Positions 6,447-60,843 of a DNA stretch of 64,000 nt are shown one piece after another. The stretch is taken from contig CAZUDI010000010.1 of NCBI GenBank assembly GCA_964618975.1, positions 4,378 through 68,377 on the forward strand, written 5' to 3'. This stretch comes from an uncultured Bacteriovoracaceae bacterium (lineage in GTDB: Bacteria; Desulfobacterota; Desulfomonilia; UBA1062). The position numbers and the translations under genes are program-made. The notes under the pieces were generated by a model that was not told the DNA's origin, did no database searches, and saw only the letters and a program-made list of their open reading frames with translations. Each line of letters starts with the position of its first letter. Positions within the stretch are counted from its first letter, which is position 1.

Positions 6447-6722
6447 TTACGGTTCAGCCCCTTTAAACCGGTTCATACGGTAGACGAAGGCCAGAATCTC
6501 GGCCACCACCTGGTAGAGTTCCTCGGGAATCTCTTCATTAATCTCAAGATGATAGAGGGCATCCAACAGGGCCTTGTCCCTCTGGATGGGTATATTGTTT
6601 TCCCGGGCCAAGGCGAGGATCCTATCCGCAAGGTCCCCGGCGCCCCGCGCCGTTACCCGCGGGGCTGGATCGCGCCCCCGTTCGTACCTCAGGGCCACCG
6701 CCTTGCGTCTTTCGCCATTCAT
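6447..6722 (-). CDS. FlhB C-terminal domain-like protein (YlqH/EscU family small protein)
   Basis: 91 aa. ARGAGDLADRILALARENNIPIQRDKALLDALY matches the FlhB/YscU C-terminal cleavage-domain fold. Confidence 0.8.
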   Translation of the reverse strand: MNGERRKAVALRYERGRDPAPRVTARGAGDLADRILALARENNIPIQRDKALLDALYHLEINEEIPEELYQVVAEILAFVYRMNRFKGAEP

Positions 6723-17023: not shown

Positions 17024-17599
17024 TTATTTCACCAGTCCCGAAAATCCCATGAAGGCCAGGGAAAGGATCCCTGCGGTAATGAGAGCGATGGGCGTTCCCT
17101 TAAAGGCCTTGGGTATGTTGTTGTATTCAAACTCCTCACGCATTCCGGCAAACACGACCAGGGCGATCCCGAAGCCCAGCGAGGCCCCGATGGCGAAGAT
17201 ACACGCATCCAGGAGGGAGTACTTGAGCTGAATGTTCAGGATGGCGGCGCCGAGCACCGCACAGTTGGTCGTGATCAGCGGCAGGAAGATGCCCAGGGCC
17301 TGATAGAGCGGAGGGCTAACGCGCTGAATGATCATCTCCACGAGCTGAACCAGCGAGGCAATCACCAGGATGAAGGCGATGGTCTGAAGATACTGCAGAT
17401 CGAATCGGATGAGCAGGTAATAGTTGATCAGCCAGGTGACGAAACACGCCAGCGTCAGCACGAAGATCACGGCCATGCTCATCCCCACGGCGGTATCGAT
17501 CCGTTTGGAAACCCCCATAAACGGACAGATACCGAGGAAGCGCGAGAGCACGAAGTTGTTCACCAATGCAGCGCCAACGATCAGCAAGACATAATACAT
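17024..17599 (-). CDS. rnfA: Rnf complex subunit A
   Basis: RnfA/NqrE-family membrane protein, 191 aa. First gene of the rnfABCDGE operon. Confidence 0.9.
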   Translation of the reverse strand: MYYVLLIVGAALVNNFVLSRFLGICPFMGVSKRIDTAVGMSMAVIFVLTLACFVTWLINYYLLIRFDLQYLQTIAFILVIASLVQLVEMIIQRVSPPLYQALGIFLPLITTNCAVLGAAILNIQLKYSLLDACIFAIGASLGFGIALVVFAGMREEFEYNNIPKAFKGTPIALITAGILSLAFMGFSGLVK

Positions 17600-17679: not shown

Positions 17680-17703
17680 GTTTAAAGATGACAAAATACT
17701 TCC
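17680..17703 (-). promoter_or_regulatory. GTTTAAAG-N8-ATACTTCC motif copy upstream of the rnf promoter
   Basis: gtttaaag-atgacaaa-atacttcc, 19 bp upstream of the -35. Same motif and orientation as 27225, 27293 and 29603. Confidence 0.5.
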
Positions 17704-17900
17704 AGCTAATGAATGGCTATTCAATTCAAGTATCTTCCTGCAGTGTTCCTCCCTCGTGCAACTCATACTTCAGGAAAATGGATCGGGGTTACTTCAGCTG
17801 CGCATGAAGGCATACGCAGGAGGTAGTGTGCCGGGGGGGTGTCCAGACAAAGACACAGGATCACCCCCCGGCCGAGATTCATGCCATCTAGACGGAAACT

Positions 17901-19202
17901 CTACTCATCCTCTCTCGGACCCGTCATGGCCGCATCATCCTGCACCGCACTGATCTGCCGGTAGACACCCCGGGCGAGGATCAGGGCAATGAAGAAGAGC
18001 AGGATCAGTGACACGATGACCACCGTAATGCTGGATTTCTGCCAGCGTGCAACCTTCTGCTGGATTTCCTTTACCTTTTCCTGACTGAGGTTGTGATATC
18101 GGTCGATATCCACCATCATGCCGACCCAACCGAAGCCCTGAGGCTTGCTGAGTCCGGCCCCATAAAAGGCGATCGGGGCATAGGCCGCAAAGATGCGGCT
18201 GTTCCCCAGGGTATAAGTGAAGGATCCGTTTTTGCCTTCCGAGGCCAGGGCATGCATCCGCGGATAATTCTCGTCCAAGAATCCCATCTTGGTGACATTC
18301 ATGGCCCCGTTGCCCGAGGCGAGCAGGGCCTCATAATTGTCCGCGTCCATGTCAGATACGGGCTGCTGATTCTCCCCGAAACCCTTGATCAGATAATCCG
18401 CCGGATGGGACAACACATAACCCTCCCGATCCACCAGGAAGGCATAGTTCTTATCCTCCATCTGCACGGCAGCATATACCTTACCGGCCTCGGTAGGGAT
18501 AATATGATCCGTGAATTCCATAACATGTACGAAATTCAGGGCCAATTCCACCACCCCGGCAAAACCCGTAGAATCAAAAACCGGCGCCGCCATGCGGATA
18601 ATGCCGTCAAAACGCTTGCCGCTATCGAACTCCGCCTTGCTCACATGCCGACCGGTTACGGGTCCCATGAAAAATTCACCGGGCGGCAGGGTCTTGGCCT
18701 GATCGAAATACCCCTCGCCCTGAACACCTTCCACGCCGGCCACATTCCGCAACTCACTAGCCGGCACTGGGCCATCGGCGTTGACCTTGAGGATCTCCAT
18801 ACCCTCCTTGTCGACGAAGGCGATCTCACGATAGATGGGGACGGGAATCTTCACTATACCTACATCGGAGGCCTTCACAACCCCCCTCACGTTGGAATTC
18901 AAGAACGTCGTGTATGACTCTACGTCCCGCGGAAGAATCGAGGCAATCCGGATGTCCTTTTCGCGTTCACTGAAGAACTGGGCGATCGCCTCGGCAATAT
19001 TGGCGGCACGCCCTTCGATGAGCTGCTTCTGACTCTCATCAAGAATACGCAGGTTCGCCTGCGTCGCTTCCTCCCCCACCTTCACCACCCCCTTGCTGAT
19101 CACCACTCCGGTAATAGCCAGGGGCAGCACGATGAGAATGATGAAGCTCAGCGCGATGCCTGCGAAGCTGAAACGGGTCTTTCCTTCCTGGTCCATATCC
19201 AT
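17901..19202 (-). CDS. Cache-like periplasmic sensor domain membrane protein with no output domain
   Basis: Two transmembrane segments (about residues 12-35 and 395-420) bracket a periplasmic domain of roughly 330 aa with a double-Cache-like pattern. The cytoplasmic tail is only about 20 aa. Confidence 0.65.
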   Translation of the reverse strand: MDMDQEGKTRFSFAGIALSFIILIVLPLAITGVVISKGVVKVGEEATQANLRILDESQKQLIEGRAANIAEAIAQFFSEREKDIRIASILPRDVESYTTFLNSNVRGVVKASDVGIVKIPVPIYREIAFVDKEGMEILKVNADGPVPASELRNVAGVEGVQGEGYFDQAKTLPPGEFFMGPVTGRHVSKAEFDSGKRFDGIIRMAAPVFDSTGFAGVVELALNFVHVMEFTDHIIPTEAGKVYAAVQMEDKNYAFLVDREGYVLSHPADYLIKGFGENQQPVSDMDADNYEALLASGNGAMNVTKMGFLDENYPRMHALASEGKNGSFTYTLGNSRIFAAYAPIAFYGAGLSKPQGFGWVGMMVDIDRYHNLSQEKVKEIQQKVARWQKSSITVVIVSLILLFFIALILARGVYRQISAVQDDAAMTGPREDE

Positions 19203-19379
19203 CTCCTGACCATGTTATTCAATTCGCAGCACAATGAATAACAAGCACTCTGTTGACCGGCGCGAGGGCGACCCCATGGATGGCAGGAGGGATGAGCCGC
19301 ACCTCACCCCCCGCGCATATCGATCCGGTGTTCCCGACGGTCCTCTTCCCTCTCGCGGAATCATATCTCCCTATCTGCA

Positions 19380-19739
19380 CTACCCCAGGATAATGGCCTT
19401 GTATGGATTGGCATAGAGAATAATGAGCGTGATAACCAGAGCATAGATGGCGATGGACTCGGTCATGGCCAACCCGACCATCATGGTCAGCATGATCTTG
19501 CCCTGAGAGCCAGGGTTCCGGCCTACGGCCTCAGACGCACCCGAGGTTGCATTTCCCATTCCAGCACCAGCGCCGATCGCACCGAGGCCCATACAGAGAC
19601 CTGCACCGAGGATCGATGCCGCGACATAGATGATCTTGGCCCAGTCGACAAATCCACCGGCCACATCAGCCGCCATAGCTGCACTGGAAACCGCAAACAG
19701 CATGAACGCCGCAAACACAAAAACTCGTAATCCTCCCAT
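19380..19739 (-). CDS. atpE: F0F1-type ATP synthase subunit c (proteolipid) with N-terminal extension, orphan gene
   Basis: GLGAIGAGAGMGNATSGASEAVGRNP...MTESIAIYALVI c-subunit hairpin. Start at the ATG with an AAGGAGA RBS (the ORF track's 19745 is a GTG two codons upstream). No other atp genes are nearby. Confidence 0.7.
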   Translation of the reverse strand: MGGLRVFVFAAFMLFAVSSAAMAADVAGGFVDWAKIIYVAASILGAGLCMGLGAIGAGAGMGNATSGASEAVGRNPGSQGKIMLTMMVGLAMTESIAIYALVITLIILYANPYKAIILG

Positions 19740-19915
19740 TAGCACTCTCCTTGTTAGTTAATATATTATACGCATGAATTCAGAGCATTATTCTGAACCA
19801 CGATTCATTAAATACACGATAGGGCAGCCTTATGCAAGTGAAATTTGCCGTGATATGAAAAATGATTCAGGGCTCAGAATGAGGGAATATCCCCTCATGA
19901 CAGGCCCTTAACCCC

Positions 19916-21469
19916 TCAGCGTTCCAGGAGAGCTCCGAACAGATCCTTGTTAAAAAAGGGCTCGTCCTCAAGACTGGCCCGGGGTATTTTGCCGGCCCTG
20001 ACGGCGAACGCCAAGCTCTCCTCGAGAGGAAAATACTCGCCCTGCAGGGAGGTGGCCTGCCCTTTGATATAGTAAATCTTGCCGTCTCTGATATAGGTCT
20101 GCACGCGCTTGGTCCCGATGAGCATCTCCCAGATGAGGATCTGCCTCTCATCGGTCCGGGCGCCAACCATGCGCTGGGAGAACACCCCCACGAGGGAGCG
20201 GGCGAACATGGCCTTCAGGTAGTCGTCTGAGAGCGTGGAGAGATACTGCTCCAGGGCGCTGAACACATCCGTAGCCGTAATGCCGGCGATGACGAGGATG
20301 CCCTTCTGGGCGGCGATGATGGATGCCTCCACCATGGAGCGGTTCTTGAGATTGGAGAGCACGAGCACATCCGGATCGTGCCGAAAGACGTGTTCGAAAA
20401 GCTGGGCGGAGTCCTTGCTGGTGTCGCGTCCGATCTCGCGCTGGTTGACATTGGAACGCTTGTGGTAATGCAGATATTCGATGGGGTCTTCGAAGGTGAT
20501 GATGTTACAGGTCCGGCTGGCGTTGATATGATCGACGAGGGCGGCGAGGGTGGCATCCTTGCCGTGTCCTCCGGGGGAACTCACCAGGAGGACACCCTTG
20601 CGCTCCAGTAGTGCAAGCAACCCTTCGGGGAGACCGAGGGCGGCGCTGCTAGGTATATCCTCCACGATCTTGCGTGCGGCCACCGCAATCTCCCCGCCCC
20701 GGTGCATATAGACATTCATGCGGTAGCGTCCCGTGCCGGCCCGGTTATAGGTATATTCGACCTCCTTGTTCTCACGCAGTTCGGCCTGCTGTTCCTGCGG
20801 TAGGATCTCCCGGATCAGGGAATCCATGAGCTCGGGGGTCACCATAGGCATGTTGCTTCTTACCAGGGTTCGGCCGCGCCTTAAGGCCGGCGGGATCCCG
20901 ATGGTGATGTGCAGGTCAGAATATTCGGGTTGCTCCAGGAGCCGCAGGATGTTGTCCGGGCTCATGTCCTGCACGGTTATGGAAGGGGTGCTCCGGGGCA
21001 CGTCCTTCAACACGAGGTCCTCCCGGCCGCAGCCGGATCGTTCTAGGGCCTTCAGGATATCCCGGATCTGCACCTGAGAGGCAAGCACAGGGGACACCTC
21101 GCGGTTGATCAGAAACTTGACGTTCTCCACCGAGACGTAATTCAGCGGGTCGGCAAAGGCCACGGTGGCAAGGCGCTCCTTGACCGCCAGGGGCACGACC
21201 AGCATTTCGTGCATGCGATCCTGGGGCAGAAGCACCTGGGCATCCTTCCTGATAACCCCCTCTTCCATGTCCAGGGTAGGCACATTGATGAGATTCTTGA
21301 GGATGCCGAGCACCTGGTCCTCTCTGAGGTAGGCCAGATGGATCAGGGTTTCCCCGAGCTTGAGATTGTGCTGCTGGGAAACCTCCAGGGCATGACGCAG
21401 CCGGTGTTCATCGATCAGACCCAGCTCGACGAGGACATCCCCCATGCGCCGGTTGTTTCTCTCTCCCAT
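19916..21469 (-). CDS. MshEN (c-di-GMP-binding) N-domain fused to a PilT-like type-IV-pilus ATPase domain with degenerate catalytic motifs
   Basis: N-terminus carries two MshEN repeats (LGDVLVELGLIDEHRLRHALEVSQQ, LGETLIHLAYLREDQVLGILKNL). The Walker A is SPGGHGKDAT instead of GPTGSGKST. The Asp and His boxes are degenerate (DPDVLVLSNLKN, VIAGITATD). Confidence 0.85.
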   Translation of the reverse strand: MGERNNRRMGDVLVELGLIDEHRLRHALEVSQQHNLKLGETLIHLAYLREDQVLGILKNLINVPTLDMEEGVIRKDAQVLLPQDRMHEMLVVPLAVKERLATVAFADPLNYVSVENVKFLINREVSPVLASQVQIRDILKALERSGCGREDLVLKDVPRSTPSITVQDMSPDNILRLLEQPEYSDLHITIGIPPALRRGRTLVRSNMPMVTPELMDSLIREILPQEQQAELRENKEVEYTYNRAGTGRYRMNVYMHRGGEIAVAARKIVEDIPSSAALGLPEGLLALLERKGVLLVSSPGGHGKDATLAALVDHINASRTCNIITFEDPIEYLHYHKRSNVNQREIGRDTSKDSAQLFEHVFRHDPDVLVLSNLKNRSMVEASIIAAQKGILVIAGITATDVFSALEQYLSTLSDDYLKAMFARSLVGVFSQRMVGARTDERQILIWEMLIGTKRVQTYIRDGKIYYIKGQATSLQGEYFPLEESLAFAVRAGKIPRASLEDEPFFNKDLFGALLER

Positions 21470-21730
21470 GACCTACCCCCCGTATTCTTTATTGTCCCTA
21501 TTATCGGAAACAAGGGCCCTGGGCCTTAATGGATTCTCCCCCAAGATGGGGCCTCCCTGCTGCACAACCCTGGCAGGGGTCCTGTTGTATGCATATCGCC
21601 CGTGACCAACCCCGAGGCCCCCAGGGCCTTCATTCATATTTCCTGTGGCACTTGGTTGGCGTCAATGATATGAAAAGCTTGGGCATGAATGCTAGGGCAG
21701 GCCTCGGAATCCCTGCTCGTCACAGACGGA

Positions 21731-21832
21731 GGGGCACGCGGCCCTTAGCGGATCATGGGTATGAACCCCAGGAAAAACCTGCCCCCCCCTCGACGCTGCA
21801 AGAGGCAGGGAATGCGGCCCATAGCGATTAAA
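21731..21832 (+). repeat. full copy of the dispersed intergenic repeat family, ending 3 nt before the histidine kinase start codon
   Basis: ggggcacgcggcccttagcg-gatcatgggtatgaaccccagg-...-ctcgacgctgcaagaggcaggg-aatgcggcccatagcgattaa. Confidence 0.85.
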
Positions 21833-21835
21833 ACT

Positions 21836-22762
21836 ATGAAAAATACCAAGAGATGGCCATCCATCACCATCTTCGTGATCATGCAGGTCGCCTGGGTGTC
21901 CGTTGTGACGCTCTGGATCATCTGGTATATCAAATATTGGTATGTCAAATACCACTATGCCCTCATCGAACACATCGGGGCCTGGGACATTGTCGTCATC
22001 GTCGAGGTATCCATCCTGCTGCTGCTGATTCTCATCGGCATCGTGATCCTCTTCGTACTTTACCAGCGCCAGGTTACCCTCACCCGCACCCAGACGCACC
22101 TCATCTCCGCCATTACCCATGAATTCAAGACCCCCCTGGCCACGACCCAGCTCTACCTGGAGACCATGCTGAAGCGGGAGCTGCCCGAGGAAACCCGGCA
22201 ACAACTCCTCACCGGCCTGCTCTCGGAAAATCAGCGGCTTAAATCCCTGGTGGAAAACTATCTGGAAAGCGCGCGACTGAGTTACCGGAACCGCTCTCAG
22301 AATCTCTCCCCACAGGCTATCAGCGAGATCATCTCGCGCTTTCTCAAGCGCCATGAGACGCTCGTCGGCCCGGTCGAGGTCTCCCTCGAGATCGAGGAGG
22401 GCCTGCTGGTCAACGTCGATGAAGACGCCTTTGATCTCGTCCTTTCCAACCTCACCGAAAACGCCATCCACTATTCCTCCGGTAGGGCACGCATTGACAT
22501 CCGTGCCTGGTCGGAGGCCAAGAGGACCTACATCGATTTCTCCGACGCGGGCATCGGCATCCCCCGCGAGCGGCATAAGGATGTATTCAAGATGTTCCAG
22601 CGGCTCCCGGAGGGGATCGCCCTGTGGGGAACAGGCACCGGTATGGGGTTGTATGTGGTCAAGGAAATTATCAAGGCCCATGGGGGCAAGATCAGGGTCA
22701 GGCCATCCTCGTCTGAGAACGGAACCTCGTTCCTCATCCAACTGCCGAGGGCGACAGCATGA
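21836..22762 (+). CDS. sensor histidine kinase
   Basis: Start at ATG 21836 (MKNTKRW). The upstream part of the long ORF is repeat-encoded. Two transmembrane segments, H-box ITHEFKTPL, N/G1/G2 ATP-binding motifs. Confidence 0.85.
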   Translation: MKNTKRWPSITIFVIMQVAWVSVVTLWIIWYIKYWYVKYHYALIEHIGAWDIVVIVEVSILLLLILIGIVILFVLYQRQVTLTRTQTHLISAITHEFKTPLATTQLYLETMLKRELPEETRQQLLTGLLSENQRLKSLVENYLESARLSYRNRSQNLSPQAISEIISRFLKRHETLVGPVEVSLEIEEGLLVNVDEDAFDLVLSNLTENAIHYSSGRARIDIRAWSEAKRTYIDFSDAGIGIPRERHKDVFKMFQRLPEGIALWGTGTGMGLYVVKEIIKAHGGKIRVRPSSSENGTSFLIQLPRATA

Positions 22763-23448
22763 GCATCAGATGGAGGGTACTCGTCATCGAGGATGACCAG
22801 GCGCTCGCCCTGGGACTGCGCATCAATCTGGAGGCGGAAGGTTATGCGGTGGTCCACGTCCTCACCGGCGAAGAGGGCCTTTCCGTAGTGCAGGACGGCG
22901 GTGTCGATCTGGTAGTGCTCGATCTCATGCTGCCGGGCATGGACGGCATCCAGACCCTGCAACGCATCCGGCGTGACGATCCGCGGATCCCGGTGCTGAT
23001 CCTGACGGCCAAGTCGGCCATGGAGGACAAGGTCACGGGGCTGCGCGCCGGTGCGGATGACTACCTCACCAAACCCTTCCATCTCGAGGAATTTCTCCTC
23101 AGGGTGAAGCGCATCCTCGACCGCTACGAATGGTACCGCTCCAGCGATATCCTGGAACTGGGCGCAGCCACGGTCGATTTCTCCACCCTCGAGGCCGTCG
23201 ACCCCCAGGGTCATAGACATCGCATCACACCGCACGAGGCCCGCCTGATCCAGTATCTCGTGGCCTATCAGGAACGCATCGTCACCCGGGCGGAACTCCT
23301 CAAAAACGTATGGGGCCTGGATCCCTCGCTGGAAACGCGCACGGTGGATACCTTTATCTCCCGTATCCGCCGCTATCTGGAACCCACCCCCTCACGGCCC
23401 ACGCACATCATCAGCATCCGGGGGAAAGGCTACCGCTACATCCCCTAA
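22759..23448 (+). CDS. OmpR-family response regulator
   Basis: Receiver domain (VLVIEDD...DLVVLDLMLPGMDG) plus a winged-helix trans_reg_C domain. ATGA overlap with the kinase gene. Confidence 0.9.
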   Translation: MSIRWRVLVIEDDQALALGLRINLEAEGYAVVHVLTGEEGLSVVQDGGVDLVVLDLMLPGMDGIQTLQRIRRDDPRIPVLILTAKSAMEDKVTGLRAGADDYLTKPFHLEEFLLRVKRILDRYEWYRSSDILELGAATVDFSTLEAVDPQGHRHRITPHEARLIQYLVAYQERIVTRAELLKNVWGLDPSLETRTVDTFISRIRRYLEPTPSRPTHIISIRGKGYRYIP

Positions 23449-23472
23449 GGAATCAAGGAGGACGCCATTTTC

Positions 23473-24219
23473 ATGAATTCTCTCAATGGATATGAACGCT
23501 TCAAAAAGTCTCTGGCCCGCTCGACCAGCCCGGCGGTCAACGATTTCCTCGTCTCGCGTCCCGATACGCTGCCGATGATCATCACGGGCGCTCCCAGTAC
23601 CAAGATCGATCTCACCACCATCACCACGGTGGGCATCGAAAATTTCTCGGTCAAACTCGTCCATGGTTTCGCCGTGATAGATGCCTCCCTGCACTGTCTG
23701 CTGGACAGTGCGCAGTATCTCGAACAACCCCCTTCTGGCACCTCACATCTCCACCGCATGCGCTACGTCTATATGCACATCGAACAGTATCTCAACGAGA
23801 CCTGCCTGCTCCGCGGCCGCATCAACGACTACCTGAAAGTGATCCCCCGGCTGTACCGCAGAGATCCGTGGTATCAGAGCCTGCTGGAGACCACGGCCAC
23901 GCTTACGGCACGTGTGAACGCCACCTTTGATCTCATTCTGAACGATGGCGACAATCATCTCGAAGAGACGCGTCAGAGGGATGCGCGCCTGGACACGCTA
24001 ATGGCCTTCGGCGCCTATCCGATCATCAAAACAGAGGCCTTCACCTCCATGTATACACGCGAGTTCCAGGCCATTCATGCACAATGGCTTCACCATGTCA
24101 TCGAGTACAATCAGCACATCACGGATCTGGCGGATTTATGCTTCGGGCAGCTCCATACCACCCTCTTCGATACCGAAGAGGCCCTGATCTATCCCAAACG
24201 TCTCGAGGTCTGCATCTGA
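23473..24219 (+). CDS. hypothetical protein (third gene of the two-component operon)
   Basis: GGAGGA RBS, 248 aa, no recognisable motif. Its amino-acid composition is protein-like rather than GC-skewed. Confidence 0.55.
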   Translation: MNSLNGYERFKKSLARSTSPAVNDFLVSRPDTLPMIITGAPSTKIDLTTITTVGIENFSVKLVHGFAVIDASLHCLLDSAQYLEQPPSGTSHLHRMRYVYMHIEQYLNETCLLRGRINDYLKVIPRLYRRDPWYQSLLETTATLTARVNATFDLILNDGDNHLEETRQRDARLDTLMAFGAYPIIKTEAFTSMYTREFQAIHAQWLHHVIEYNQHITDLADLCFGQLHTTLFDTEEALIYPKRLEVCI

Positions 24220-24322
24220 AGACAAGCCCTTCCCCCGCCGCGCACGAGAATATCCCATGCACCCAGGACCGCCCCCGATGCAACCCGTGGGCGGCAGGCC
24301 GCACATCCGGTGCATCTCGCCT

Positions 24323-24351
24323 TTGACAGAGCGGCGGCAATGCTTTATAGT
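24323..24351 (+). promoter_or_regulatory. near-consensus sigma70 promoter of the merR-family gene
   Basis: TTGACA at 24323-24328, an exact 17-bp spacer, then TATAGT at 24346-24351. An AT-rich dyad (tagctttaagctta) lies between the -10 and the RBS. Confidence 0.6.
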
Positions 24352-24391
24352 ATAGGTTATAGTTTAGCTTTAAGCTTAATAAGGAGATCCC

Positions 24392-25090
24392 ATGGGCATC
24401 AAGATCGGTGAGATTGCCAGGAGGAGCGGTGTCCCACCGTCGACCATCCGATACTACGTGCGTCAAGGTCTGCTGCCGGAGCCGGACAAGGTGAACAAGA
24501 GCATGGCCTACTACGACGAAGGCTGTATCGAGAAGATCCAGGCCATCCGTTATCTGCAGGAGACACGCTACTTCCCCCTGTCCGTCATCTGCAATATCCT
24601 GCGCCGAATGAACGATGGCCTCAGCCTGGAGGAGGCGGAGTCCATCGAAGATGCGGTCTTCGGTACCCAGGGAGACCTCATTGAGAGGGAGGGCTTCCTG
24701 CGGGCCACCGGACTGACGGGCGAGGAACTGGACCAGGCCGAAGGCATGGGTCTGCTCCTGCCCTATATCCAGGAACCCGGGCGCACCCGCTACAACCAGG
24801 AGGATATCCGTTTCGGCAAGGAGATCCTCAAGGCCTACCTCGACCTGGGAGGTGAGTTCAAGGACCTGGATTTCTACGTCACCCTCGGCAAAGAGATCAT
24901 GGACCACGAACAGAGCCTGCGTAAGAAGATGGTCCGCGGAAAAAACAAGAAGGAGAACATCCTCATCACCGCCGGCATCTCCAAGATCGCTGACTTCTTA
25001 AGGGGATACATCCTGAGACGACTATTTCAACGCACCGTCCAGGAAAGCATCGTCAAGAGTCTCGATAAGGACGCATCGCCTCCACGCTAA
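24392..25090 (+). CDS. MerR-family transcriptional regulator
   Basis: N-terminal MerR HTH (IGEIARRSGVPPSTIRYYVRQGLLPEP) and a long C-terminal effector domain. Confidence 0.85.
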   Translation: MGIKIGEIARRSGVPPSTIRYYVRQGLLPEPDKVNKSMAYYDEGCIEKIQAIRYLQETRYFPLSVICNILRRMNDGLSLEEAESIEDAVFGTQGDLIEREGFLRATGLTGEELDQAEGMGLLLPYIQEPGRTRYNQEDIRFGKEILKAYLDLGGEFKDLDFYVTLGKEIMDHEQSLRKKMVRGKNKKENILITAGISKIADFLRGYILRRLFQRTVQESIVKSLDKDASPPR

Positions 25091-25133
25091 AGCGTTTCCC
25101 CCCTTGTGGCCCATACAGACGCAATGTCGTCAC

Positions 25134-25160
25134 GGCTCAAGGGTCTGCCTCCCTTGAGCC
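25134..25160. terminator. hairpin between the convergent merR-family and fadH-like genes
   Basis: ggctcaaggg-tctgcctc-ccttgagcc. Confidence 0.45.
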
Positions 25161-25188
25161 ATGGCAAGGCACTGGGCACATCCAAGGC

Positions 25189-27207
25189 TCAGCCCTTGGG
25201 CGCCTCCCCGGCAACCCGATACCCGGCCTCAAAGCCCTCATGGATGGCCTCGAACGCCTTGCGGGGACGGCGTGCATCGCCCACCGTGACAACCTGCGGC
25301 ACATGGGGACGCACCTTCTCCACCAGGGAGTCATCCCTGCGTGTCCCCACGGCCAGGACCACCGTGTCACAGGCAATAAGGCGCTCAGATCCATCCTGTT
25401 CCACCAGGACACCCTCAGGAACGATCGCACTGGCCTTCGTACTGACCAGGGTATGCACATGGTAGCGCCTGAGCATCTGCAGTTCCACCCAGCGATTGCT
25501 GAGCCCGATATCGGTCCCCAGGCGCGGAAGCATTTCGATGATCGTCACCCCTTTGATGCCGCAGGTCGCGAGCCTTTTCAGCGTCTCCACCTCCTCGGCC
25601 TGATGCAGGAAGAGAAACTCGAGCGTCGCCGCATCGATCGTGCCGATCTGGGCCAGCAGGATCCCGGTCTCAATGCCCACCGCCCCGCCGCCAATGATCA
25701 CCACCTCCTTTCCTACGCTGGCCCGGCCTGCCAACACATCCCAGGCCTGCACCACATTCTGCCCCTCGGCTCCGGGGATGCCCGGCATGATGGGGCATCC
25801 CCCCGTGGCCACGACCACGGCCATGGGTCTTTCCTGTCCCACGCTGGCCGCATCCGCCCGGGTGCCAGTCCTGATTTCAACGCCGCTCAGGTGTGCCTGA
25901 CGCGTCAGGACCCGCACGAGGGTGTTGAATTCATCCCGCGACTGAAGCGCACCGGCCAGGTGCAACTGACCGCCCGGACGTTCACTTTCCTCAAAGAGCA
26001 CGACTCGCAGTCCCGCAGTGGCAGCGCTGATGGCGGCCGAGAGTCCCGCCGGCCCACCGCCCGCCACCACCAGCGTCTGCCCCTTTCCGGCCCCGGCCCG
26101 GGAAGGGAATTCCTCCTCGCGGCCCGCCCGGGGGTTGACCATGCAGGCCACCGACCCCAGACTTACGAGCCTGTCGAAACAGCCCTGGTTGCACCCGATG
26201 CAGGACACGATATCCTCGCATCTTCCCGCACGCGCCTTGTTCGGGAGCTCCGGGTCGGCGATGAGGCCACGGGCGAAGCCCACCATGTCCGCCAGGCCTT
26301 CGCGGATGATGGCCTGTGCCGCGCGGGGATCCGTGATGCGGTTGCAGGCGATCACGGGTTTTTTCACCGCCTCCTTGATGCCGCGGGCAAGGTAGACGTA
26401 AGCCCCGCGGGGTACCTCCATGGGTATCTGGGGAATACGTGTCTCATGCCAGCCCCCGGTGACATTGAAGGCGTCGACCCCGGCGTGCTCTAGCGCAAGG
26501 GCAAAGCTTTGCGCCTCGCGGTTGGTGTGGCTGCCCGGGATGAAGTCGTTGCCCGCGATCCTGAAAATCACGGGATAACCCTCGCCCACCGCGCCCCGGA
26601 TGGCCTCGGCCACCTCGATACCGAAACGCATACGGCGCTTCAGATCACCTCCGTAGGCGTCCCCCCTCAGATTCGTGACCGGCGATAGGAACTGCGAGAT
26701 CAGATAGCCAGCCGAGGCGATAACCTCCACCACATCCAGACCGGCCGCCTTGACCCGAGCCGCCGCCGTGGCATAGGCCTCGATGACGCCGTGAATCTCT
26801 TCAAGGGTCATCTCCCGCGGCTCTTCCCTGGTGAAATGGGAGGTCACGGCCGAAGGGGCCAGGGCCTGCCGGCCGATGAGGGCCGAGTGGGCGTAGCGTC
26901 CTGCCTGATATAGCTGGGCACCTATGCAGGCACCATGGGCCTTGACCGCCAGCGCCAGCCGCCTGAGCCCGGGGATGAAACGCTCATCGTCCAGGCCGAT
27001 GAGCCACTCTCCCCCGCTGTAGGCGTCGATGCGGCAGCCGCCGATCAGTATCAGGCCAGCCCCGCCGCGAGCGCGCTCCGTATAGAAGGCGATGAGCCGA
27101 TCGGTCACCTCGCCCGTGGGGGTATAGTTGAGGTGCATGGCCGGCATGACAATCCGATTCCTTAACATGGCATTCCCGATGCAAAGCGGGGAAAAAAGGG
27201 CATCCAT
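25189..27207 (-). CDS. 2,4-dienoyl-CoA reductase-like flavoenzyme (OYE-family FMN domain plus FAD/NAD(P)-binding domain)
   Basis: 672 aa. N-terminal Old-Yellow-Enzyme TIM-barrel motifs, a 4Fe-4S Cys cluster (CIGCNQGC) and a C-terminal GGGPAG dinucleotide fold, matching FadH/enoate reductase architecture. AGGAGG RBS. Confidence 0.88.
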   Translation of the reverse strand: MDALFSPLCIGNAMLRNRIVMPAMHLNYTPTGEVTDRLIAFYTERARGGAGLILIGGCRIDAYSGGEWLIGLDDERFIPGLRRLALAVKAHGACIGAQLYQAGRYAHSALIGRQALAPSAVTSHFTREEPREMTLEEIHGVIEAYATAAARVKAAGLDVVEVIASAGYLISQFLSPVTNLRGDAYGGDLKRRMRFGIEVAEAIRGAVGEGYPVIFRIAGNDFIPGSHTNREAQSFALALEHAGVDAFNVTGGWHETRIPQIPMEVPRGAYVYLARGIKEAVKKPVIACNRITDPRAAQAIIREGLADMVGFARGLIADPELPNKARAGRCEDIVSCIGCNQGCFDRLVSLGSVACMVNPRAGREEEFPSRAGAGKGQTLVVAGGGPAGLSAAISAATAGLRVVLFEESERPGGQLHLAGALQSRDEFNTLVRVLTRQAHLSGVEIRTGTRADAASVGQERPMAVVVATGGCPIMPGIPGAEGQNVVQAWDVLAGRASVGKEVVIIGGGAVGIETGILLAQIGTIDAATLEFLFLHQAEEVETLKRLATCGIKGVTIIEMLPRLGTDIGLSNRWVELQMLRRYHVHTLVSTKASAIVPEGVLVEQDGSERLIACDTVVLAVGTRRDDSLVEKVRPHVPQVVTVGDARRPRKAFEAIHEGFEAGYRVAGEAPKG

Positions 27208-27224
27208 GAGTTCCTCCTATTATA

Positions 27225-27248
27225 GTTTAAAGTTATACTTTATACTTC
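27225..27248 (-). promoter_or_regulatory. GTTTAAAG-N8-TATACTTC motif copy 1, overlapping the core promoter of the fadH-like gene
   Basis: gtttaaag-ttatactt-tatacttc. On the gene strand, CTTTAAAC directly abuts a TATAAT hexamer (revcomp of 27219-27224) and the AGGAGG RBS. Confidence 0.5.
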
Positions 27249-27292
27249 ATTATGCCTGCGGCCACACCCTGTCAAGTCCAAACCGTCAAAAG

Positions 27293-27316
27293 TTTAAAGT
27301 TAGACTTAATACTTTA
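27293..27316 (-). promoter_or_regulatory. GTTTAAAG-N8-AATACTTT motif copy 2, 68 bp further upstream in the same orientation
   Basis: gtttaaag-ttagactt-aatacttt. Confidence 0.45.
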
Positions 27317-27428
27317 TGTTTTGCTTGCATGCCACGCAAACTTGTGGCATTCTCATAAAATCATCATGCAAGGGACGCCATCACGGACCATACCGGTATG
27401 GCACTCTAATATCCTAAAGGAGCATGTC

Positions 27429-28478
27429 ATGAAAACACGCATTACAGAACTCTTTGGCGTCAAACACCCCATTATCCTCTCCGGCATGAGCTGGATCAGC
27501 GTGCCCAAGATGGTAGCCGCGGTATCCAATGCTGGCGGTTTGGGCATTCTCGCTACCGGCCCCCTGGACGCCTCCCAGACCAGGGCTGCCATCCGCGAGA
27601 TCCGCAGCTATACCGACAAACCCTTCGGGGCCAACGCCTCCCTGCTCTTCCCCGGGGCGGCCGACAATGCCAGGGTTCTTCTCGAAGAGCAGGTGCCGGT
27701 GATCAACTTCGCCCTCGGCAAGGGCGACTGGATTTGTGAAGCCGCGCACAAGTACGGCGGCAAGGTGGTGGCCACGGTGACCAACGCCCGACACGCCAAG
27801 AGGGCCCAAGATTACGGCACGGATGCCGTGATCGTCACCGGACACGAGGCCGCGGCCCATGGCGAGGCGGCCACGACCTTTTGCCTCATCCCAAGTATCT
27901 CCGCCGTGCTCGACATCCCGGTGATCGCCGCCGGCGGCGTGGGCGACGGTCGCGGTCTGGCCGCGGCCCTGGCGCTGGGCGCCGAAGGCGTGGCCATGGG
28001 GACCCGTCTCATGGCCACCCAGGAGAGCCCGCTGCACGAGAACTACAAGCAGCTCTCGGTGGAAAAACAGGTCTACGACACCCTTTTCTCCAAGCGCTTC
28101 GACGGTCTATGGTGCCGGGTGCTGGACACCCAGGGTGCCCGCAAGGCCGTCAAGCAGGGACTCAACCCCCGCAAACTGCTGGAGGCCATCCCCAACTCTA
28201 TGGATATTGCCCGGCAGCTGCATATGCCCTACCCCAAGCTCTTTATCGGCGTCCTGCTCTCCGGCTGGGAGAACGCCAGGCAGCTCGCCTTCCTGGCAAA
28301 CGCCTTCAAGCTCATCCGCATCGCCACCGAGGACGGGGACACGACCGAAGGTGTGCTGCCCGTGGGGCAGGTGACCGGCATCATCAAGGACATCCCTACC
28401 GTGGAACAACTCTTCGAGCGCACCGTGAAGGAGGCCGAGGGGGTCTCGAAAAGGCTGGCCAAGCAGGTCAAGGACTAG
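27429..28478 (+). CDS. nitronate monooxygenase / enoyl-ACP reductase II (FabK)-like FMN oxidoreductase
   Basis: Start at ATG 27429 with an AAGGAG RBS (MKTRITELFGVKHPIILSGMSWIS). NMO/NPD-family TIM barrel. Confidence 0.85.
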   Translation: MKTRITELFGVKHPIILSGMSWISVPKMVAAVSNAGGLGILATGPLDASQTRAAIREIRSYTDKPFGANASLLFPGAADNARVLLEEQVPVINFALGKGDWICEAAHKYGGKVVATVTNARHAKRAQDYGTDAVIVTGHEAAAHGEAATTFCLIPSISAVLDIPVIAAGGVGDGRGLAAALALGAEGVAMGTRLMATQESPLHENYKQLSVEKQVYDTLFSKRFDGLWCRVLDTQGARKAVKQGLNPRKLLEAIPNSMDIARQLHMPYPKLFIGVLLSGWENARQLAFLANAFKLIRIATEDGDTTEGVLPVGQVTGIIKDIPTVEQLFERTVKEAEGVSKRLAKQVKD

Positions 28479-28585
28479 CCCATTTCATCCGCAAGACCAA
28501 AACGGCCGCTGCGCCCCCTTAGGGGACGCAGCGGCCTGCAGCGGGGCCTCTCTGATGCACTCAGGCGCACCGCCGCACATGGTGT

Positions 28586-29575
28586 TCATGTCAGGCGGGC
28601 CTGTGTTTTCTGCAGGCAGGCCACGGCCTCGCTATGCATACGGCTGAGCAGTTGCTCGCAGGTCAGTATCTCGTGAATGAACCCAATGGACTGCCCCACC
28701 ATGAGCGGCGCCTCCTCGGGGTTCCCCGATTCCCAGGCCTCCTTGACGCGTTCGCCGCCGATGAGGGGTATAAGCTCTTCGAGCCCGCCACCGCGGGCCT
28801 CGATCTCCTGAACGGTCCGGGTGATGCGGTTCTTGAGCGACCGGCCCTGCAGGCCGAGCGACTTGCAAAAGATTGTGGTGTCGTTCTCTTGGCGCCGGAT
28901 GAGCTCGTCCTTGATGTTCCGGTGCACCTCGCATTCCTCGGTGGCGATGAACCGACTCGCCATCATCACGCCCTGAGCCCCCAGGGTCAGGGCCGCGGCC
29001 AGTGAGCGGCCGTCCGAGATCCCACCCACGCTCACCACAGGGATATTCACCGAGTCCACGATGCGCGGGGTCAGGACCATGGTGGTCACGTCGTCATCCA
29101 GGGGGTGTCCCCCCTCCTCGAATCCGGCGGCATAGACCCCGTCATAGCCGGCCTTCTGGGCATGCAGGGCGTGGCGCACCGAGCCCACCTTATGGAAGAG
29201 CTTCACACCCGCCTTCTTCAACTCTTCGACCCCCGCAGGCCCGGCCACCTTGTCGATGGGCGTGCCCGACACCTCGATCCCGGCCACCTGTTCCTGGGCA
29301 CATACGCGGATGTACATCTGGTGGTGTTCCTGCGTGATGCGGATAGAGGGCAGCAGGGTCAGCCCCACCATAAAGGGCTTGTCCGTAAGCGTTCGCGTCT
29401 CGCGGATGGCGGCGCGGAATTCTTCCTCGGTTTCGTAATTACCGGCGGTGAGGTTGCCCAGGCCACCGGCATTACTGATAGCGGCACACAGTTTGGGCCG
29501 GCAAAGCCACATCATGGCCCCGCAGATGACCGGATAGCGGATGGCGAACATGTCGGTAATAGCGGTCTTGATCAT
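28586..29575 (-). CDS. nitronate monooxygenase-family FMN oxidoreductase (second paralog)
   Basis: MIKTAITDMFAIRYPVICGAMMW and GGISDGRSLAAALTLGAQGVMMASRF are NMO-family motifs. GGGAGGA RBS. Confidence 0.85.
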   Translation of the reverse strand: MIKTAITDMFAIRYPVICGAMMWLCRPKLCAAISNAGGLGNLTAGNYETEEEFRAAIRETRTLTDKPFMVGLTLLPSIRITQEHHQMYIRVCAQEQVAGIEVSGTPIDKVAGPAGVEELKKAGVKLFHKVGSVRHALHAQKAGYDGVYAAGFEEGGHPLDDDVTTMVLTPRIVDSVNIPVVSVGGISDGRSLAAALTLGAQGVMMASRFIATEECEVHRNIKDELIRRQENDTTIFCKSLGLQGRSLKNRITRTVQEIEARGGGLEELIPLIGGERVKEAWESGNPEEAPLMVGQSIGFIHEILTCEQLLSRMHSEAVACLQKTQARLT

Positions 29576-29602
29576 AATTCCTCCCTGACGTTGGATAGGT
29601 AA

Positions 29603-29626
29603 GTTTTAAGTTGTACTTCATGCTTC
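29603..29626 (-). promoter_or_regulatory. GTTTTAAG-N8-CATGCTTC motif copy 3, upstream of the second NMO gene
   Basis: gttttaag-ttgtactt-catgcttc, 28-51 bp upstream of the start codon. Confidence 0.45.
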
Positions 29627-29790
29627 ATAATATCCGCGCATGCGCTTGTCAAGGTGATTCCTTGTTGGGACAAGGCGGTGCCTATGTCAGGAAGGAGCAA
29701 GCGTCTGTCATGCGGGGACACGCCCGGTTGCGGATGGAAGTCACCCTGCCAGTCGGCCCTTTCATCACCCCGGCAGCCATGGTACTATAT

Positions 29791-51161: not shown

Positions 51162-51680
51162 TCACCCCTCATCAGGGGGTGGATCTGCCTTTTCTTCAAG
51201 GGCCCCCTCGTCCGGATCACCCGCGGCCGGGACCCTGAGAAGATGCTTCAGCCCGGCGGCGGTGCGTACGAAGGCCTCTGTCTCGACCGCATTAAAGCGT
51301 CCAAGGTTGCGGGTAACTATCGCATGGGTGTGATCCTCCACCCGGCGCACGATACGCTCCCCGGCAGGCTCGAGCGAAACCAGGATATTGCGCTTGTCGT
51401 GCGTGTCGCGCCGGCGGGACACCAGGCCTCTGGCCTGCAGGCGGTCGACGAGGCGCGTGGCGGTGCTGACGGGGATATCCATCTCGCGGGCCACCTCCTT
51501 CATGCGCGCCGAGGAACGGCGGCGCAGGAACTGCAACAGGTAAATCGTCGTATAGTCCAGTTCGAAGCAGGATACCTTAGAGCGCTCGAAGCGATACATG
51601 GCCACCATGGCTTCGAAAAGCAGCTGATCGAAATCCTCCCTGGTCAGTTCCAGTATCCCGGGAATCCGATCCCATTCCAT
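51162..51680 (-). CDS. MarR-family transcriptional regulator
   Basis: Winged-helix MarR core (LLQFLRRRSSARMKEVAREMDIPVSTATRLVDRLQARGLVSRRRDTHDKR). Confidence 0.85.
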   Translation of the reverse strand: MEWDRIPGILELTREDFDQLLFEAMVAMYRFERSKVSCFELDYTTIYLLQFLRRRSSARMKEVAREMDIPVSTATRLVDRLQARGLVSRRRDTHDKRNILVSLEPAGERIVRRVEDHTHAIVTRNLGRFNAVETEAFVRTAAGLKHLLRVPAAGDPDEGALEEKADPPPDEG

Positions 51681-60309: not shown

Positions 60310-60843
60310 TTATATGTCACCCGCTGGGGGGGAAAGGGATCTCCGGCGGAGTTCCTCCGCATATTTCGCCTTGAGCCCCTCGAGCATGTCGATGATGGTC
60401 AGCAGCACGAAGCGCCCGTTCTCGTCGGCCACCTCGCAGGTCTCAATCTCCATCTGCCGCAGGTCCTCGAGCTGTTCGTCCAGGGCGGAGATCTCGGAGA
60501 CGAACTGCTCGAGGATCTGTCCCCCCTCGAGGAAACGGAAGAAGAAGGCCCGCGTAAGGAAGTCGATCTGATAGTCCACCGGCGTGGGCGCGGCGGTGAG
60601 CTTCTTGTAGAAGAGCTCCCGGCCCTGGGTCGTGACCGTATAGACGTGCTTGTTGGGCTTGCCGGTCTGAATGACTACCTCCTTGCGCACCAGGTCGGAC
60701 TCCTCGAGTTTGCGCAGGGCGGGATAGATCTGATTGAGACTGAGGTTATAGGAAACCATCATCTTGCCCGAGATACGCTTGATCTTGTAGCCGGTCTTGG
60801 GTCCGGACATGAGGAAGCCCAGGATCATCAGTCCTGTATCCAT
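60310..60843 (-). CDS. PadR-family transcriptional regulator
   Basis: PadR winged helix (ILGFLMSGPKTGYKIKRISGKMMVSYNLSLNQIYPALRKLEESDLV). Confidence 0.85.
   Translation of the reverse strand: MDTGLMILGFLMSGPKTGYKIKRISGKMMVSYNLSLNQIYPALRKLEESDLVRKEVVIQTGKPNKHVYTVTTQGRELFYKKLTAAPTPVDYQIDFLTRAFFFRFLEGGQILEQFVSEISALDEQLEDLRQMEIETCEVADENGRFVLLTIIDMLEGLKAKYAEELRRRSLSPPAGDI

Follow-up and report, generated by a model that had tools for sequence, protein, structure and literature searches.

A MerR-type DNA-binding domain can be used for repression, and HspR, CarH/LitR and GlnR/TnrA do so from operators that overlap normally spaced core promoters. At the canonical promoters of the MerR family, the binding site is located in a spacer of 19–20 bp and its centre is 7–8 bp from the −35 box (PMC5045206, PMC9909328). 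FtsR/Rv1828, two-domain MerR regulators of actinobacteria, activate ftsZ and recognise a 25-bp repeat, AACCCTAAAGTAAAGGTTGAGGGTA, with the inverted sequence AACCCT...AGGGTT, centred at −73 of this gene (PMC6683498). SCO5550 of Streptomyces coelicolor (PDB 2dg6) is reported to activate the neighbouring gene sco5551 (cited in PMC5045206). Here we analysed a 64,000-nucleotide stretch of contig CAZUDI010000010.1 from an uncultured bacterium of the Desulfomonilia (hereafter, the window). In this window, an AT-rich palindromic motif precedes a MerR-family regulator gene (merR, 24392–25090, + strand) and the genes of three flavoenzymes, namely a FadH/OYE-type reductase and two nitronate-monooxygenase (NMO)/FabK-like proteins designated NMO1 and NMO2. 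Judging from sequence comparison, the motif is likely the operator of this adjacent MerR-type regulator, which we propose to be an autoregulated repressor of the flavoenzyme genes. An earlier annotation of the same DNA (the original prediction) had listed four related 24-mers as copies of a directional, non-palindromic element, one of them upstream of the rnf operon.

Form and distribution of the motif

The motif has the consensus AAAGYTTAAAGT-N3-ACTTTAARCTTT, and instances of it were found at 27225, 27292 and 29603, corresponding to three of the four 24-mers listed previously. Of the four coordinates given earlier, three were correct; that of the third copy should be 27292 instead of 27293. 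A search of the window with the 24-mer pattern, allowing up to three mismatches, gave 3 matches against 0.10 expected, and the motif is thus commoner than chance. The earlier view of a directional motif without dyad symmetry was contradicted by pattern searches and by an alignment of 32 sites, drawn from the window and from 15 loci belonging to other genomes. At the core of the motif is the 9-3-9 palindrome GTTTAAAGT-N3-ACTTTAAAC, which matched the window twice at three or fewer mismatches against 0.00 expected. In the alignment, in which each site was oriented by its downstream gene, conservation extended beyond the 21-mer to the full AAAGYTTAAAGT-N3-ACTTTAARCTTT. Each arm contains two TAAAG repeats spaced 7 bp, the second of which lies outside the core arm, and these outer repeats account for the earlier impression of a direct repeat. 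The fadH operators of loci L002 (2350–2385) and L005 (5–40) are perfect palindromes of about 31 bp, ATAAAGCTTAAAGTTAAACTTTAAGCTTTAT, with all four TAAAG repeats.

We collected 80 fadH-like loci from other genomes, amounting to approximately 1 Mb. The nearest relatives of the FadH-like protein were approximately 60% identical and came from Thermodesulfobacteriota or 'Deltaproteobacteria' assemblies. The sequence G[CT]TTAAAGT-N3-ACTTTAA[AG]C was present approximately 40–50 bp upstream of fadH, behind a TTGAC(A/C) box, in 12 of the 14 closest loci (L001–L005, L007 and L009–L014), and was not found upstream of fadH in L006 and L008. A weight matrix was then constructed from 11 orthologous fadH sites of other genomes, with no window sequence in the training set. 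The scan of the window yielded exactly four strong matches (22–33 bits), all between 24355 and 29623, and the runner-up among non-overlapping matches scored 5.5 bits. No match of at least 20 bits was found in the remainder of the fadH loci, outside the L001–L014 clade used for training.

The highest score, 33.2 bits, was obtained for the predicted fadH operator (27225–27252), which consists of the core GTTTAAAGT-TAT-ACTTTATAC at 27225–27245 and a promoter-side outer repeat reaching 27252. Its predicted target is the gene for a FadH/OYE-type Fe-S flavoenzyme of 672 amino acids (25189–27207, − strand; Pfam Oxidored_FMN and Pyr_redox_2). The site at 24355–24375, GGTTATAGT-TTA-GCTTTAAGC, scored 25.9 bits and is located 37 bp before the ATG of merR, where it is predicted to serve autoregulation. 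A weak relative of the motif had been noted at this position; the site exists, but after a 7-bp upstream shift of the register it is a further instance of the full consensus and a strong one, compared with 5.6 bits at 24362.

The match at 27292–27312, GTTTAAAGT-TAG-ACTTAATAC, scored 25.0 bits and is located approximately 62 bp before the start inferred for fadH. It had been regarded as a second fadH site; in alignments with L084, L086 and L090, however, its counterparts are the NMO1 operators, and this synteny assigns it to NMO1, a probable target on the opposite strand (27429–28478, + strand; 349 amino acids; Pfam NMO, E = 8.2e-64). The copies therefore do not all point into minus-strand units, as one of them serves the plus-strand merR gene and the one at 27292 aligns with operators of the plus-strand NMO1. 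The fourth match, GTTTTAAGT-TGT-ACTTCATGC at 29603–29623 (22.0 bits), precedes NMO2, also a predicted target (28586–29575, − strand; 329 amino acids; Pfam NMO, E = 1e-55). Syntenic NMO2 orthologues of 329 amino acids carry the dyad in L084, L086 and L090, and the NMO2 sites of the relatives scored 28–32 bits. The matrix matches and the orthologous dyads together uphold a shared cis-regulatory signal ahead of the FadH-like reductase and the NMO paralogues.

None of the three flavoenzymes passed a curated equivalog cut-off of NCBIfam. The FadH-like protein possesses the architecture of an OYE-type flavin mononucleotide (FMN) domain followed by an FAD/NAD(P)H domain, and its best NCBIfam models were under their cut-offs (mycofactocin OYE_2, 493 bits versus 793; BaiCD, 476 versus 825). 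The FabK equivalog TIGR03151 gave 240.1 and 238.6 bits for NMO1 and NMO2, respectively, below the cut-off of 453.1.

The fadH and NMO1 operator copies are contained in a 27-nt direct repeat of 89% identity, located 67 bp apart (27224–27250 and 27291–27317). The repeat points to a local operator duplication at the time fadH arrived beside NMO1, and one of the copies at 27225 and 27292 is probably a local duplicate of the other. In L081 (9783–9803, equivalent to 27225–27245 of the window), a contig obtained for the same organism in a different sample, the N3 spacer is TTT instead of TAT and both arms are identical. The NMO1 leader (27324–27372) contains inverted repeats, ATGCCAC-N8-GTGGCAT at 27329–27350 and CTTGCATG/CATGCAAG at 27324–27331 and 27365–27372. 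NMO1, intact with 349 amino acids in the window, is split into two open reading frames (ORFs) of 215 and 119 amino acids in another sample's contig (L082, 3183–4232), owing to either a frameshift or an assembly error.

Promoter geometry and the regulator gene

We examined the position of the dyad relative to promoter elements in the 32 oriented sites. In 31 of them, the distance from a TTGAC box to the dyad centre downstream of it was 28–46 bp (median 41), and the dyad centre was approximately 34 bp past the 3' end of this −35 box. The ribosome-binding site followed the dyad within a few bases (3–12 in most sites). Because the dyad centre is approximately 41 bp downstream of TTGAC, the site is predicted to lie over the −10 region and the transcriptional start, roughly from −3 to +18. 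Such a predicted overlap with the start site is typical repressor geometry.

The merR promoter (24323–24351, + strand) comprises TTGACA, a 17-bp spacer and TATAGT, with 11/12 matches in the promoter scan, and the same layout is found in L084, L086, L088 and L090. The fadH promoter (27249–27275, − strand) was assigned by inspection; the −35 box TTGACA is at 27270–27275, and the −10-like element is either CATAAT at 27249–27254, with a 15-bp spacer, or TAATGA, with a 17-bp spacer. Its TTGAC is 40 bp from the dyad centre, matching the orthologues. The −35 box TTGACA of NMO2 (29647–29652, − strand), also assigned by inspection, is 39 bp from the dyad centre. The dyad directly follows the −10 element at merR, fadH and NMO2, in agreement with the earlier remark that the motif adjoins the −10 region. 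Transcription is predicted to begin near 24358, 27242 and 29618, approximately 7 nt past the respective −10 boxes. An activator or alternative-sigma element is disfavoured by the presence of ordinary TTGACA −35 boxes and by the location over the start site, and a tandem-site repressor, which had been offered as another option, is nearest to the evidence.

The regulator gene encodes a protein of 232 amino acids. Its N-terminal MerR winged helix-turn-helix matched Pfam MerR_1 (E = 1.2e-18) and MerR (E = 1.6e-11), and PDB sequence matches were obtained to MerR and CadR. Fold comparison showed an Rv1828-type C-terminal domain after the helix-turn-helix; this domain had no Pfam match, and the PDB profile matches were limited to the N-terminal domain. 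Structural matches of the regulator included GlnR, TnrA, CarH and CarA. The members of the family are approximately 65% identical over many metagenomes, are annotated only as generic 'MerR family', and share a single invariant cysteine (C45) and a conserved C-terminal helix. From the names of the closest homologues, we judged the subfamily to be well conserved in uncultured relatives of Syntrophaceae and other Thermodesulfobacteriota. An internal duplication of the MerR helix-turn-helix (residues 92–156 versus 1–78) was considered as the source of the double repeats and rejected (hhalign probability 0.7%).

The MerR orthologue was convergent with fadH and adjoined it in L001, L002, L007, L011 and L012. 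Contigs from other metagenomes were also chosen by MerR homologues of 61–68% identity, among which L085, L087 and L089 are near-identical copies of the L084, L086 and L088 loci. The dyad was found upstream of merR at the same −37 offset in L084, L086 and L088, and at other offsets in L002, L007, L011 and L090. The synteny merR ... NMO1(+)/NMO2(−) ... pfkB-DUF4416-yicC-remA-gmk is kept without fadH in L084–L087 and L090, and dyads precede merR, NMO1 and NMO2 in these loci. The neighbourhood of L088 is unrelated. Here, dyads follow TTGACA-N17-TATAGT at merR, at a divergent Flavodoxin_2/FMN_red gene and at an FAD-oxidoreductase operon, and dyads are also located between the genes of a beta-keto acid cleavage enzyme (BKACE) and an enoyl-CoA hydratase (ECH), ahead of both. 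As dyads stand ahead of merR even in this unrelated context, the motif travels with the regulator gene, and the choice of the adjacent MerR protein as the one to test was well placed. Thiolase and acyl-CoA synthetase genes adjoin dyad-bearing genes of L088 (4208–4459 and 8946–13845). The gene context of L088 hints at a link to acyl-CoA metabolism.

We propose the following mechanism. The regulator would bind, as a dimer or a higher oligomer, to the palindrome of approximately 21–27 bp that is placed right after the −10 box of ordinary sigma-70-type promoters. The bound protein would block RNA polymerase and thereby repress merR itself, the FadH/OYE-type reductase and NMO2, and probably NMO1. 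A signal would release the regulator; the candidates are the binding of a hydrophobic or acyl-type ligand to the Rv1828-like C-terminal domain and a modification of the invariant Cys45. We suggest a lipid-type ligand only because a review gives fatty acids as the effector of Rv1828 (PMC9909328). This idea may be extended to the view that Rv1828-fold MerR proteins are a broad class of lipid/acyl-ligand sensors beyond Actinobacteria, which here would repress FadH/OYE-type and FabK-like, enoyl-reductase-like flavoenzymes through a higher-order oligomer on [TAAAG]x2-N3-[CTTTA]x2 over the start. We regard this extension as speculative and rather doubtful. If it were true, the operator and regulon would be the first predicted for this domain type outside Actinobacteria, and the system would provide an accessible way to study what is sensed by the Rv1828-type domain.

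Several observations weigh against the proposed repression by the adjacent MerR-family protein. Most characterised MerR proteins work inside a long promoter spacer, not at the start site (PMC9909328, PMC5045206). A strict promoter scan did not recover the fadH and NMO2 promoters, and the copy at 27292 is the sole one of the 32 sites for which no TTGAC was found up to 70 bp away in either direction; as it lacks a recognisable promoter on both sides, the control of NMO1 in this genome is uncertain. Moreover, no MerR orthologue was found within 7 kb of fadH in L003, L006, L008, L009, L013 and L014, several of which carry the dyad upstream of fadH; the gene may be located at a greater distance in these genomes. 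The absence of a nearby MerR gene from dyad-bearing loci and the start-site operator, which is unusual for the family (PMC5045206), would fit a repressor operator bound by another transcription factor encoded elsewhere. We consider such a factor unlikely, as the dyad lies ahead of this MerR gene in every context examined, the unrelated L088 included, and no other regulator gene was consistently near the dyads in these contexts; a histidine-kinase/response-regulator pair is absent from L086 and L088. The MarR gene (51162–51680) and the PadR gene (60310–60843) of the window are 22 and 31 kb distant. We retain the adjacent MerR-family protein as the probable repressor.

The rnf copy and other readings of the motif

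The copy upstream of rnfA (17024–17599, − strand) had been counted as an instance of a directional element, recognised by an activator or an alternative sigma factor, that would join rnfABCDGE, the FadH-like reductase and an NMO gene in a redox regulon. Exact GTTTAAAG and ATACTTC blocks are indeed present upstream of both rnf and fadH. In the window, GTTTAAAG alone gave 4 matches against 0.25 expected, and a composite of the two blocks with a flexible gap gave 2 against 0.00 expected, a post hoc count because the pattern was derived from these sites. Among 170 loci, the composite occurred in no other locus, save for other-sample copies of the same genome.

However, the rnf copy scored −2.9 bits on the independently trained matrix because it has one intact arm, GTTTAAAG, and it was missed by the 24-mer pattern at three or fewer mismatches because the gap to its ATACTTC block is 1 bp shorter than at fadH. 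The 24-mer was not kept in the two closest rnfA relatives (87–88% identical), in which the −35 box was kept. No dyad was found upstream of rnfA in 80 loci, and the matrix scan found no match of at least 14 bits across 330 kb of rnfA loci. Phylogenetic footprinting, suggested earlier for the upstream regions of both genes, gave conservation for fadH and not for rnf. The right half of the rnf copy belongs to a family of local repeats, (A)TACTTC(C)AG, at 17696, 17765 and 17790, which partly explains the residual resemblance. The rnf promoter, TTGACA-16-AATAAT (17660–17633), is 19 bp downstream of the copy.

From these sequence features, we judged that the rnf copy is not a member of the dyad system, and there is little chance that it has even some weak function. 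The idea of a redox regulon of rnf and the reductases falls with the membership of rnf, and the energy-conserving Rnf complex is not linked to these reductases. Considering also the standard TTGACA promoters and the palindromic form of the motif, a directional element is quite improbable. Involvement of Rex was not borne out either; the Rex box TTGTGAA-N4-TTCACAA had one match, with two mismatches, in the NMO1 coding region against 1.06 expected, and this search found no Rex box near the dyad promoters.

The 19-mers at 17696–17714 and 17765–17783 are 74% identical and 69 bp apart, and the repeats at 17696–17797 may be a site array for another rnf regulator. A fourth exact GTTTAAAG, at 6461–6468 (− strand) inside an ORF at 6447–6722 (− strand), has no dyad partner and probably occurs by chance. 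Upstream of rnf, a small isolated gene (19380–19745, − strand) is flanked by the genes of a Cache-domain membrane protein and a T2SSE-type ATPase; the annotation of L081 gives it an ATP-synthase c-subunit domain.

We also considered that the palindrome functions at the RNA level, forming a hairpin in the 5' leader that influences translation or mRNA stability. Most copies fall within the transcribed leader, after the −10 box and before the ribosome-binding site, and the fold of the L002 copy is stable (−16.2 kcal/mol, z = −4.35). On the other hand, the leaders of the window were no more stable than shuffled sequence (z = −0.58, +0.53 and +0.64), the arm sequence is kept across unrelated genes and does not covary, the position is fixed to the −35 box and not to the ribosome-binding site, and the copy at 27292 has no upstream promoter. 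A hairpin function is therefore very improbable. Canonical MerR activation by promoter distortion, with the −35 and −10 boxes flanking the dyad, is hardly credible: the MerR-family DNA-binding domain of the regulator and a TATAAT just beyond the dyad in the fadH copy of the window would agree with it, but the left arm has no overlapping −35-like hexamer, the ribosome-binding site after the dyad leaves no room for a −10 box and a leader in most sites, the distance of approximately 34 bp between TTGAC and the dyad centre contrasts with 7–8 bp in canonical MerR promoters (PMC5045206), and the merR spacer is 17 bp, not 19–20 bp.

Comparison with known MerR-family systems

With the start-site operator assigned to the adjacent MerR-type repressor, we read the locus as an ordinary local regulon, previously undescribed, in which a few flavin oxidoreductase genes are the predicted targets. 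An uncharacterised MerR subfamily is thereby given a specific operator, a geometry relative to the promoter and a limited predicted target set, and the practical value of the finding is in annotation. Our literature searches found no MerR repressor of nitronate monooxygenase with an inverted repeat, only noise for the half-site string, and nothing relevant on a MerR-family enoyl regulon in Syntrophus.

The regulator shares the two-domain architecture of FtsR/Rv1828, with 14% identity in the C-terminal domain, and scored 35.8 bits against the cut-off of 150 with the NCBIfam model TF_FtsR_Actino. As the architecture is shared and the score is far under the cut-off, the regulator is not an FtsR orthologue. 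The operators also differ: the palindrome described here is found at flavoenzyme genes, over the start site, in a Thermodesulfobacteriota-like host. The ligand of the Rv1828/FtsR domain is poorly understood, and the structural relationship to this domain is of some interest. The identity between SCO5550 and the regulator is 18–27%, and to our knowledge the two have no operator or target genes in common.

The activators MerR, CueR and SoxR share the DNA-binding fold of the regulator, and their operators are likewise palindromes of approximately 20 bp. They differ from the present system in promoter geometry, since the spacer here is 17 bp at merR and 15–17 bp, by inspection, at fadH, instead of the canonical length. 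HspR, CarH/LitR and GlnR/TnrA, which are plain MerR-type repressors, resemble the proposed regulator in that a MerR-type domain is used for repression. Their effector domains (chaperone-dependent, B12 and glutamine synthetase, respectively) differ from that of the regulator here. The HAIR operator (CTTGAGT-N7-ACTCAAG) and the TnrA box (TGTNA-N7-TNACA) also differ from the operator here. Next to these repressors, the regulator described here would add a case of a MerR-family protein that is probably a simple start-site repressor and does not distort the promoter.

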